Virus record (IMG/VR): IMGVR_UViG_643348549_000020
DNA length: 64,000 bases
Source: a virus
Taxonomy: Duplodnaviria; Heunggongvirae; Uroviricota; Caudoviricetes
Reading direction: 5' to 3' (one strand)
The number at the start of each line of letters is the position of its first letter. Positions within the stretch are counted from its first letter, which is position 1. This document shows positions 42,843 to 44,425 of the stretch, piece by piece. The notes beneath the pieces are model-generated. The model did not search any database. It had not been told where the DNA came from and saw only the letters and a list, made by a program, of their open reading frames with translations. The position numbers were made by a program, and so were the translations under genes.

Positions 42843-43950
42843 AACCGATGTTCCGGGATTATCTCCGTATTTTGACAAAAGAAATAACAAAGTTTACTGG
42901 CGTTACAGGCATCCCATAACAGGCAAAAATCACGGTCTCGGCAGTATTGACCAGAAACTGGCAGAAACTATTGCAGCAGAAGCGAACAGCCGTCTTGCCC
43001 GGCAGCAAATGGAACAAATGCTCAGTCTGCAGGAGAAAATTATTAGTGATACCGGCGGTTCATCAACCGTTACCATTTTTCTGAATAATTACAGAAAAAT
43101 TCAACAGGAAAGATATGAAAACGGCGAGATCAAACTCAACACGCTGAAACAGAAAGCGGCCCCTCTCAGGGTATTTGATGAACGTTTTGGCACCAGACCG
43201 TTAGATGCCATAACCGTAAAAGATGTGGTATCAGTACTGGAAGAGTACAAGGCCAGAGGACATAACAGAATGGGACAAATTTTCAGGAAAGTACTGATCG
43301 ATGTTTTCCGGGAAGCTCAGCAAACGGGCGATGTCCCGCCAGGCTTTAACCCTGCAGAATCTGCAAAAAAACCGCAGGTGCGGATATCAAGACAGCGACT
43401 GACTTTTGATGAGTGGATGATGATTTATAACGCAGCGGAAAAGGATGGTTACTTTTTACAGCGCGGTATGCTGCTGGCACTGATGACAGGCCAGCGCCTT
43501 TCAGATATTTGCAAAATGCAATTTTCGGATATCCGGGATGGTTATCTTCATGTCGAACAGCAAAAAACAGGAACCCGGATTGCCATCCCTCTGGCTCTGC
43601 GTTGCGATAAATTAAATCTCACCCTGGATGATGTGGTGTCATCCTGCCGCGATTGCGTTCTTAGTCCGTGGCTATTGCACCACCATCACGCGAAAGGGAC
43701 AGCTAAGCGCGGCGGGATGGTTAAGCCAGCAACATTAACCGTTGCATTTAAAAAAGCCCGGGATTCTGTGGATTACAACTGGCGTGCTAATGGCACCCCA
43801 CCCTCTTTCCATGAGCAGAGATCTTTATCAGAGCGATTGTTCAGAGAGCAGGGGGTTGATACCAAAATTTTGCTAGGCCATTCGAATCAAAAAATGATCG
43901 ATATTTACAACGACGCACGCGGTAAGGAATGGAAAAAACTGGTCATTTGA
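42820..43950 (+). CDS. int: Tyrosine integrase (lambda Int family)
   Basis: C-terminal catalytic region with R...HxxR...Y pattern (LLGHSNQKMIDIY). Confidence 0.9.
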   Translation: MARPRKYKTDVPGLSPYFDKRNNKVYWRYRHPITGKNHGLGSIDQKLAETIAAEANSRLARQQMEQMLSLQEKIISDTGGSSTVTIFLNNYRKIQQERYENGEIKLNTLKQKAAPLRVFDERFGTRPLDAITVKDVVSVLEEYKARGHNRMGQIFRKVLIDVFREAQQTGDVPPGFNPAESAKKPQVRISRQRLTFDEWMMIYNAAEKDGYFLQRGMLLALMTGQRLSDICKMQFSDIRDGYLHVEQQKTGTRIAIPLALRCDKLNLTLDDVVSSCRDCVLSPWLLHHHHAKGTAKRGGMVKPATLTVAFKKARDSVDYNWRANGTPPSFHEQRSLSERLFREQGVDTKILLGHSNQKMIDIYNDARGKEWKKLVI

Positions 43951-43956
43951 TGACCA

Positions 43957-43991
43957 GTTTTGCAGAGGGGTTTTGCAGAGGTTTTGCAGAG
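43957..43991. repeat. Three direct repeats of GTTTTGCAGAG directly after int stop (candidate integrase arm-type sites); int stop itself sits in a palindrome
   Basis: Seen directly. Confidence 0.5.
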
Positions 43992-43995
43992 AAAA

Positions 43996-44121
43996 TTAAA
44001 AACGATATCCTGCGGAGAACATAAACACCCACGGATCCAGTCGTACCGAGTCTTTCACGGTAGTAACACCAGATTTATACTTAGCCGTGGTATCGATATC
44101 CATGTACCACACTGGTAGGTT
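43996..44121 (-). pseudogene. ompW: Isolated ompW 3'-end (41 codons, ...DSVRLDPWVFMFSAGYRF stop) convergent with int; divergent from the native ompW end, so likely the phage-supplied replacement end (att core region)
   Basis: Translation matches the OmpW C-terminus as recalled; an in-frame TGA lies immediately upstream, so no ompW 5' part is attached. Confidence 0.5.
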
Positions 44122-44425
44122 TCAAAAAACACAATAACCAATTGTATTTGAAGCAAAAAACAAGACTTTGAGATGCTTTTTTGTACCTTTTTTTTATGTT
44201 TTTAACTGCCTGATTTTATTGAAATCTTTTTTAGTTTTGCAGAAGGAATTTTTTACTTGATTGTAACTTTTTCGTTTTTTTTGGGGCTAATTGACGCGCA
44301 ATGCTGGGCGGGGAGCGCACAGCCAAAAAACCCGAAATTGACCGCTAATTACTGCCAATCATCATCGCTCTGATTGAGCGTAAATCATTCAGGTTATTCA
44401 GTTCTTCCTTCTGCTCTCGCTGACG

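Follow-up and report, generated by a model that had tools for sequence, protein, structure and literature searches.

Tandem double lysogens of phage lambda arise when a circular genome, either superinfecting or int-defective, recombines with a resident prophage by general recombination. We describe a comparable structure in a DNA stretch of 64,000 nt (IMG/VR record IMGVR_UViG_643348549_000020; 'the window' denotes this whole stretch), which corresponds to part of a prophage cluster at the mlrA (yehV) gene of Escherichia coli O157:H7 TR01. The feature in question is a stray 3′ end of ompW, at 43996-44121, which lies between an integrase gene and the cargo end of neighbouring prophage DNA. Our analysis makes it highly probable that this stray end belongs to the intact phage attachment site (attP) of a lambdoid, ompW-targeting phage, here named PPompW-2, and that the phage genome sits inside a cointegrate formed by homologous recombination at mlrA.

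The TR01 cluster shares with lambda tandem lysogens the single reciprocal crossover, the insert of unit length, the intact attP at the centre, the hybrid segments at the junctions and the two cos sites in direct order. Unlike in lambda, the recipient is a non-allelic prophage that sits at a different chromosomal locus and differs in integrase, immunity region and attachment site; the crossover lies in a short mosaic module common to lambdoid phages of the Shiga toxin (Stx) type, and the host is a natural isolate rather than a construct. The PPompW arrays and prophage-in-prophage clusters of Stx-producing E. coli, which include prophage clusters at mlrA (Nakamura et al. 2021, PMC8112680), have in common with the TR01 cluster the int-xis-att module, the ompW-derived duplication and the presence of a duplicated prophage. 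However, those clusters are Int-mediated, built through chromosomal att sites or an attB borne on a prophage, and their units are att-flanked, whereas the TR01 cluster points to homologous recombination and contains one unrecombined attP. The chimeric Sp5/Sp15 Stx phages of O157 Sakai (Asadulghani et al. 2009, PMC2669165) are a further relative, as homologous modules flanking stx/nanS-p recombine between lambdoid prophages there too, with excised circles present. Those chimeras reflect double exchanges that replace a segment in a transducing phage, whereas in TR01 a single exchange appears to have left a whole extra genome in the chromosome.

The PPompW phages, the 28-bp core of their attachment site, the ompW 3′ decoy, the stx-less mlrA prophage, the mosaic homology around nanS-p and the process of general recombination are all known already. 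What appears to be new, judging from the sequence, is a cluster that arose when prophages of different loci cointegrated through homology, with an orphan attP left behind. We found no description of the cointegrate, for TR01 or elsewhere, in the searchable literature; one comparative survey includes TR01 without discussing the structure. The cointegrate is rare yet mechanistically familiar, a clean and instructive case that will not surprise specialists.

The window aligns end to end with TR01 (NZ_CP033605.1, 2889882-2953881) at 99.8% identity, and the TR01 cluster spans 93.7 kb (93,709 bp) between two mlrA halves. A preliminary description of the window had divided it into two prophages, X on the left and Y on the right, and had read the left end of X as the first 22 codons of mlrA. 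That reading was right: the fragment (222-290, + strand) comprises 22 codons and a TGA created at the junction, and 222-287 translates to MALYTIGEVALLCDINPVTLRA, then TGA, identical to the first 22 residues of K-12 MlrA and not a chance match. To its left lie the K-12 upstream region and btsS, in K-12 order. The fragment represents the left-hand att junction of the mlrA prophage, and a core of ~20 bp (CCTGTCACGTTACGCGCGTG, at ~270-289) was defined there by three-way alignment of the uninterrupted K-12 mlrA, the left junction in the window and the right junction in TR01. At the far right end of the TR01 cluster, mlrA-type xis and int adjoin the mlrA 3′ part, followed by yohO and yehW; the mlrA 3′ part, which the preliminary description had listed as missing, is located at the cluster itself. 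The ompW 5′ part, listed likewise, is at the native locus, where the ompW open reading frame (ORF) is intact.

Between these ends, the cluster consists of alternating stretches of two phages. The left part of X (291-26059, - strand) is the late region of the mlrA/yehV prophage and carries DinI, tail fibre, J, tape measure and head genes, terminase, a lysis cassette and the 3′ part of a nanS-p/DUF6645 gene. Window positions 1-27471 are 99.83% identical to the mlrA prophage of strain TW14359, with only seven differences to the left of the crossover described below and with matching protein accessions; the TW14359 prophage is the same element without the insert and without any ompW-type DNA. The right part of X (26077-43950) is the early half of PPompW-2. 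It has the gene set of the native TR01 copy (methyltransferase, Q, RusA, DUF968, hokD, replication genes, a cI/cro-like pair, dicB, an 814-aa exonuclease, xis and int), and from 26077 to the att region only one difference separates it from the native PPompW-2 of TW14359. The P arm and cargo end of PPompW-2 follow on the other side of the core (44115-46600, - strand; assigned by identity of the arm to the native junction), and the left part of Y (46578-64000, - strand) consists of PPompW-2 late genes for tail and head that extend past the window. From 46.5 to 64 kb, four differences from the native PPompW-2 of TW14359 were found.

The remainder of Y lies beyond the window in TR01. After the ompW-type late genes come a second nanS-p/DUF6645 gene, tRNA-Ile/Arg/Arg, a Q antiterminator and ybc/emrE genes, then a P gene interrupted by IS1203, red/gam genes, an excisionase and an integrase that differ from those of X, and the mlrA 3′ part. 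This distal part of the cluster is 99.7% identical to the mlrA prophage of TW14359. The reciprocal crossover, the mlrA-type early region, its int and the mlrA 3′ part are all located 8-30 kb past the window end.

The size of the insert matches that of a single phage genome. The cluster (93,709 bp) exceeds the TW14359 mlrA prophage (48,287 bp) by 45,422 bp, and native PPompW-2 measures 45,423 bp from core to core. When the cluster was compared with the native locus by BLAST, two segments covered all of PPompW-2, their sole overlap being a 3.3-kb block common to both phages. The insert is exactly one circularly permuted PPompW-2 unit genome with attP intact. Outside the att arms, the inserted copy differs from the PPompW-2 of TW14359 at five positions in ~38 kb of window sequence, which indicates that the insertion event was recent.

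The shared block (DUF826, DUF1378 and nanS-p; ~98% identity between the two phages) also records where the two genomes were joined. A four-way alignment of this block from X (in the window), Y (in TR01), native PPompW-2 and the TW14359 mlrA prophage gave 70 parent-distinguishing sites. X carries the mlrA-type allele at 30/30 sites up to 26059 and the PPompW-2-type allele at 40/40 sites from 26077, and the interval between them, 17 bp at 26060-26076, falls inside a hybrid nanS-p/DUF6645 ORF that is intact (25084-27030, - strand, 648 aa). In TR01, the Y copy is its exact reciprocal and switches in that same interval, and exceptions number 0 of 70. The earlier suspicion that X is a chimera of prophages normally resident at different loci was therefore well founded, with a crossover at 26060-26076 to which all 70 sites conform. 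To judge from these alleles, the pattern looks like the signature of a Campbell-type insertion, in which a circular PPompW-2 entered the resident mlrA prophage by a single reciprocal exchange in homologous DNA.

Both parents occur elsewhere in undisturbed form. The native ompW locus of TR01 lies ~1.2 Mb from the cluster (1.68-1.78 Mb), is undisturbed and holds two tandem prophages. Its order is yciC, an intact 639-nt ompW ORF, an Sp9-like prophage, the core with a phage-type ompW 3′ end, PPompW-2, the core with the native ompW 3′ end, and yciE. The first prophage, the Sp9-like one, has nleF/espM1/nleG at its cargo end; the second, PPompW-2, has IS1 and a gene for a kinase of the OspG family. 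Uninterrupted PPompW-2 is also present in TW14359. In Sakai, Sp9 stands alone at ompW, which is why the OspG phage has no Sp number and was given the name PPompW-2 here. A 90-nt pseudogene fragment of the 'YkgJ family' is annotated between yciC and ompW in TR01 and in strain 2014C-3061; one prophage-borne attB (attB-in-PP_2) has been traced to the ykgJ/ecpE region (Nakamura et al. 2021, PMC8112680).

Our data are consistent with a model of three steps. A circular copy of PPompW-2 would first arise, either by Int/Xis excision of the resident ompW copy in a replicating cell or with the arrival of an identical phage that immunity blocked. This circle and the resident mlrA/yehV prophage would then be joined by a single reciprocal crossover between homologous sequences within the 3.3-kb shared block, catalysed by RecA or by phage functions, for example those of the bet/exo genes in the mlrA prophage. 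The left side of the product would read mlrA 5′, mlrA-phage late genes, hybrid nanS-p, PPompW-2 early genes with xis and int, and attP; its right side would continue with the OspG arm and PPompW-2 late genes, the reciprocal hybrid nanS-p, the mlrA-phage early genes with int, and mlrA 3′. This predicted order is exactly the order observed. There is experimental precedent, since circular forms of Sp9, an ompW prophage, and recombinants between prophages have been demonstrated in O157; O157 ompW prophages excise spontaneously, and O157 prophages recombine with one another near stx/nanS-p (PMC2669165).

The ompW fragment at the centre of the cluster had been described as a 41-codon OmpW C-terminus, convergent with int, diverged from the native end and with a stop codon directly upstream, and each of these features holds. 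On the - strand, 43996-44121 encodes 41 codons and a stop (NLPVWYMDIDTTAKYKSGVTTVKDSVRLDPWVFMFSAGYRF, then stop), and the peptide matches the Pfam OmpW profile (PF03922) over positions 155-195 of 195 with E=2.4e-13 and 50.9 bits against a cutoff of 24, which excludes chance similarity. Against the K-12 OmpW C-terminus it is identical at 33/42 aligned positions (stop codon counted) and at 97/126 nt, whereas the native TR01 ompW end, adjoining yciE, is identical to K-12 at 121/126 nt. An in-frame TGA lies directly upstream of the fragment (...GYCVF*NLPVWYMD). In records of the LC5678xx series, this phage-type stretch is annotated 'duplication due to insertion of PPompW'; with this annotation in PPompW records, and with its difference from the native TR01 end, the fragment is supplied by the phage. 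An ompW lysogen has the phage-type copy in place of the native 3′ end, which is displaced.

The DNA around the fragment has the make-up of a complete attP. The integrase gene (376 aa, 42820-43950), convergent with the OmpW fragment, encodes the lambda Arm-DNA-binding and Phage_integrase domains of Pfam and is preceded by xis (42594-42842), which has a Pfam Exc match. In an INPHARED search, the xis-int-att stretch was 99.6% identical over 1,521 nt to 11 PPompW records, with the matches ending at 44114. This position is the end of a 28-bp core, CAGTGTGGTACATGGATATCGATACCAC (44087-44114, - strand), defined by comparison with the uninterrupted K-12 ompW: K-12 ompW, the two native junctions of TR01 and the window show no difference in the core, and in this four-way alignment the sequences diverge on both sides of it. 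For Sp9, Asadulghani et al. (2009, PMC2669165) sequenced the circularised phage, determined a core of 28 bp experimentally and moved its position 121 bp upstream from where it had been predicted before; the window core agrees with it in length, the only property compared. Both arms in the window are identical to arms of native prophages, the right one to the arm that abuts the native ompW 3′ end and yciE (shared with this junction in TR01 and TW14359) and the left one to the arm beside native int. Because the core is flanked on both sides by phage arms and not by bacterial DNA, the junction has the form P-core-P′, which is attP.

In CP025907.1, a record of apparently free phage DNA, one contiguous piece comprises int, the ompW 3′ end and the core and continues for ~600 bp into the adjoining arm (to window position 44716). 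The record, named 'Escherichia phage 204576', is a 31.5-kb linear, unannotated, extrachromosomal sequence from an assembly of enterotoxigenic E. coli, with the PPompW int/xis module present and the attP uninterrupted in its interior, and provides a useful reference for the free form of the PPompW att module. A search of IMG/VR viral contigs for the exact 70-nt attP gave 0 matches.

The preliminary description had explained the junction differently, by sequential integration of two ompW-targeting phages into a tandem array in which Y lies upstream of X; on this model, a later exchange with an mlrA prophage would have replaced the distal end of X. As a reading of the junction alone this was reasonable, since the seam of a tandem array has the same sequence as attP and the junction by itself cannot discriminate between them; moreover, O157:H7 normally has two tandem prophages at ompW. 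The wider cluster argues strongly against it. Both ends of the cluster are mlrA halves, the ompW 5′ part and the native 3′ end are located elsewhere, and the far end of Y consists of the early region of the mlrA prophage, with mlrA-type int and the mlrA 3′ part, instead of ompW 5′. The ompW-type parts of X (early) and Y (late) make up one phage genome and not two, and the units are not each delimited by a core, of which there is one in 93.7 kb. The native ompW array of TR01 is complete, and the tandem model would require at least two extra exchanges falling in the same 17-bp interval. For TR01 and the window we consider it very improbable.

The same tandem reading proved correct for another strain. 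Among 5,426 complete genomes, ten carry the junction, and we viewed its surroundings in five of these, in TR01 and 2014C-3061 out to both cluster ends and in three others only within ±20 kb. In 2014C-3061 the junction (int, ompW 3′ end, core and OspG arm) is 99.9% identical to the window. There, however, yciE and the native ompW 3′ end stand on one side of the array (1.997-2.083 Mb), followed by an Sp9-like phage, PPompW-2 and, on the other side, ompW 5′ and yciC, and the junction is a true tandem seam between two different complete phages at ompW. It shares with the window the sequence from int to the OspG arm, and differs in being bounded by ompW 5′/yciC and the native 3′ end/yciE. The order in 2014C-3061, with PPompW-2 beside ompW 5′ and the Sp9-like phage beside yciE, is opposite to that in O157:H7, which implies that lineages differ in the order in which these phages integrated at ompW. 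In the three partly viewed strains (7.1_Anguil, O111:H8 7-27 20A and TX 265-1) the junction joins clearly different lambdoid phages, the members of each pair differing in their replication, Q and head modules.

The number of cores also bears on a second Int-mediated route, in which the PPompW-2 integrase would have inserted the phage into an ompW-like attB carried by the mlrA prophage, as conceivable for attB-in-PP_3 (Nakamura et al. 2021). Prophage-borne attB sequences do exist in O157 prophage clusters, including an ompW-like one of 121 bp, and an mlrA cluster of this general kind has been described in FRIK944 (PMC8112680). However, insertion by Int leaves two cores that flank the insert, and the cluster has one, in its centre: the ompW core matches once in the window, and it is absent from the remainder of the mlrA cluster and from the TW14359 mlrA prophage, which represents the parent. 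The 21-bp attB-in-PP_1 was not found in the window, the novel joints lie in homologous nanS-p sequence, and integration into attB-in-PP_3 is stated not to have been observed (Nakamura et al., PMC8112680). The single core and the position of the joints in nanS-p lead us to reject prophage-in-prophage insertion, to which we attach next to no probability.

The genes that flank the two loci weigh in the same way on a large inversion, by which the ompW and mlrA prophages, as inverted homologues ~1.1 Mb apart, would have swapped ends. Prophage-mediated inversions across the terminus are known in O157:H7, and the two prophages are indeed mutually inverted and share more than 20 kb at 97% identity. 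Yet mlrA 5′ and 3′ flank one and the same cluster, with their neighbours in K-12 order, and ompW keeps both of its ends; besides, an inversion can neither create an attP nor duplicate 45 kb. We discarded this explanation, the chance of which seems negligible, on the genes at the far end of the cluster and at the native ompW locus.

The only serious residual rival to cointegration is a misassembly, in which reads from excised, circular PPompW-2 were threaded into the mlrA prophage and the real chromosome holds an ordinary 48-kb mlrA prophage. Several observations count against our interpretation and in favour of such an error. The junction was placed at mlrA in TR01 alone among the five genomes viewed of the ten that carry it, three of the five being viewed in part. 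The arrangement comes from assembled sequence, and excised, replicating circles could mislead an assembler at a 3.3-kb repeat of ~98% identity; O157 prophages are documented to form circles spontaneously (PMC2669165). Finally, the TR01 record contains odd patches in comparison with the window, which show some uncertainty in the repeat regions of its assembly. Save for one base at position 16, all differences between window and TR01 are confined to these patches: IS1 (45699-46519; 83 differences, resembling another IS1 isoform at an unchanged site) and a 340-bp DUF968 patch (30700-31036; 39 differences).

At both patches the window is 100% identical to the PPompW-2 of TW14359, and the two PPompW-2 copies of TR01 differ from each other; gene conversion among the repeats or polishing artefacts in the TR01 record could be the cause. 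Since the window matches TW14359 where TR01 differs, it is not literally the TR01 record but a slightly different version of the sequence with unchanged architecture. This second version, which may or may not be independent, speaks against an artefact, as does the insert being exactly of unit length. The two nanS-p copies are moreover clean, neither collapsed nor mixed, and switch reciprocally within the same 17 bp at 70/70 sites; a real single crossover predicts such clean reciprocal hybrids, and mis-threading of an assembly graph followed by polishing does not. We therefore regard misassembly as unlikely, and the chromosome as probably carrying the cointegrate.

If the cointegrate is real, several consequences would follow. 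Inserted without attL and attR, PPompW-2 should be unable to leave by site-specific Int/Xis excision, and a 45-kb prophage together with the OspG kinase gene would be duplicated; that gene (44974-45564; OspG_kinase PF22303, E=2e-90) occurs twice in TR01, with the identical product WP_000692020.1. The late genes of X and Y form direct repeats of ~20 kb that are 97% identical, from which homologous pop-out of 45-kb hybrid circles is expected. Together with two cos regions 45 kb apart, these repeats would destabilise the cluster, from which hybrid phage might then arise. Tandem lysogens of lambda can be packaged without excision, and by analogy the two cos regions could allow the same here.

Whether the cointegrate is an active intermediate rather than a dead scar is a more speculative question, and we consider it doubtful that cos-to-cos packaging, swapped circles and attP-driven inversions make it a third general route to clusters. 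If they did, a hybrid PPompW-2 with the lysis cassette of the mlrA phage would be packaged straight from the chromosome, and recombination between the 20-kb repeats would release tail- or lysis-swapped circles that keep int and attP. The orphan attP is inverted relative to the three ompW att sites ~1.15-1.25 Mb away, and through it the PPompW integrase would then drive inversions that span the terminus. Cointegration would thereby stand beside tandem integration and prophage-in-prophage insertion as a third route to the prophage clusters, effector duplications and phage mosaics of enterohaemorrhagic E. coli (EHEC).

The case is of practical importance for reading prophage junctions, because a junction that resembles tandem site-specific integration can be an attP trapped by non-allelic homologous recombination, and only the flanks and the crossover pattern separate the two. 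For EHEC genomics, it represents a further route by which a 45-kb prophage with a type III effector-like OspG kinase may be duplicated and prophage clusters enlarged. In strain typing, junction assays at yehV/mlrA and ompW would read as normal, whereas a surplus of 45 kb would be seen in optical maps or by pulsed-field gel electrophoresis. From the long direct repeats, instability is to be expected, as is the release of hybrid phage.

Several features of the attachment region and of the two phages deserve description in their own right. Three direct repeats of GTTTTGCAGAG(G/A) lie between the int stop and the ompW stop (43957-43992, + strand), in the P′ arm, and a fourth copy in the same orientation occurs at 44234-44245 in the other, cargo-side P arm. 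Four of the six matches to this motif in the whole window thus sit within 290 bp, and the cargo-side copy is conserved in the Sp9-like phage, the arm of which has otherwise diverged. From sequence, the repeats are plausible candidates for arm-type Int-binding sites on both arms. The integrase stop codon is spanned by a perfect inverted repeat of 12 bp, AAAACTGGTCAT/ATGACCAGTTTT, the halves of which are 3 nt apart (43935-43961); this repeat could be a terminator stem or a protein-binding site in the P′ arm.

To the right of the junction, on the - strand, the cargo end comprises a DUF4376 remnant, a transposase remnant, the OspG-family kinase gene, IS1 (~45700-46520) and tail-fibre genes. The four late-region differences from TW14359 (47430, 47549, 47559 and 48575) fall in or beside a collagen-like repeat region of the tail-fibre gene at 46968-48287. 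Neither phage has stx genes between Q and nanS-p. Downstream of the Q/methyltransferase region of PPompW-2, RefSeq annotates a 71-nt tRNA-Met at ~27509-27579, although ARAGORN found no tRNA in the window; in the mlrA-type phage, tRNA-Ile/Arg/Arg occupy the equivalent place. The portal and ClpP-protease/major-capsid genes of the mlrA-type late region are fused into one ORF of 1,156 aa (15459-18929, - strand). RefSeq calls the TR01 portal frameshifted, and six of the seven differences from TW14359 in the mlrA-type half fall close together, at 17582-18300. A defect in the mlrA-type head module is probable, whereas the PPompW-2 late module in Y looks intact.

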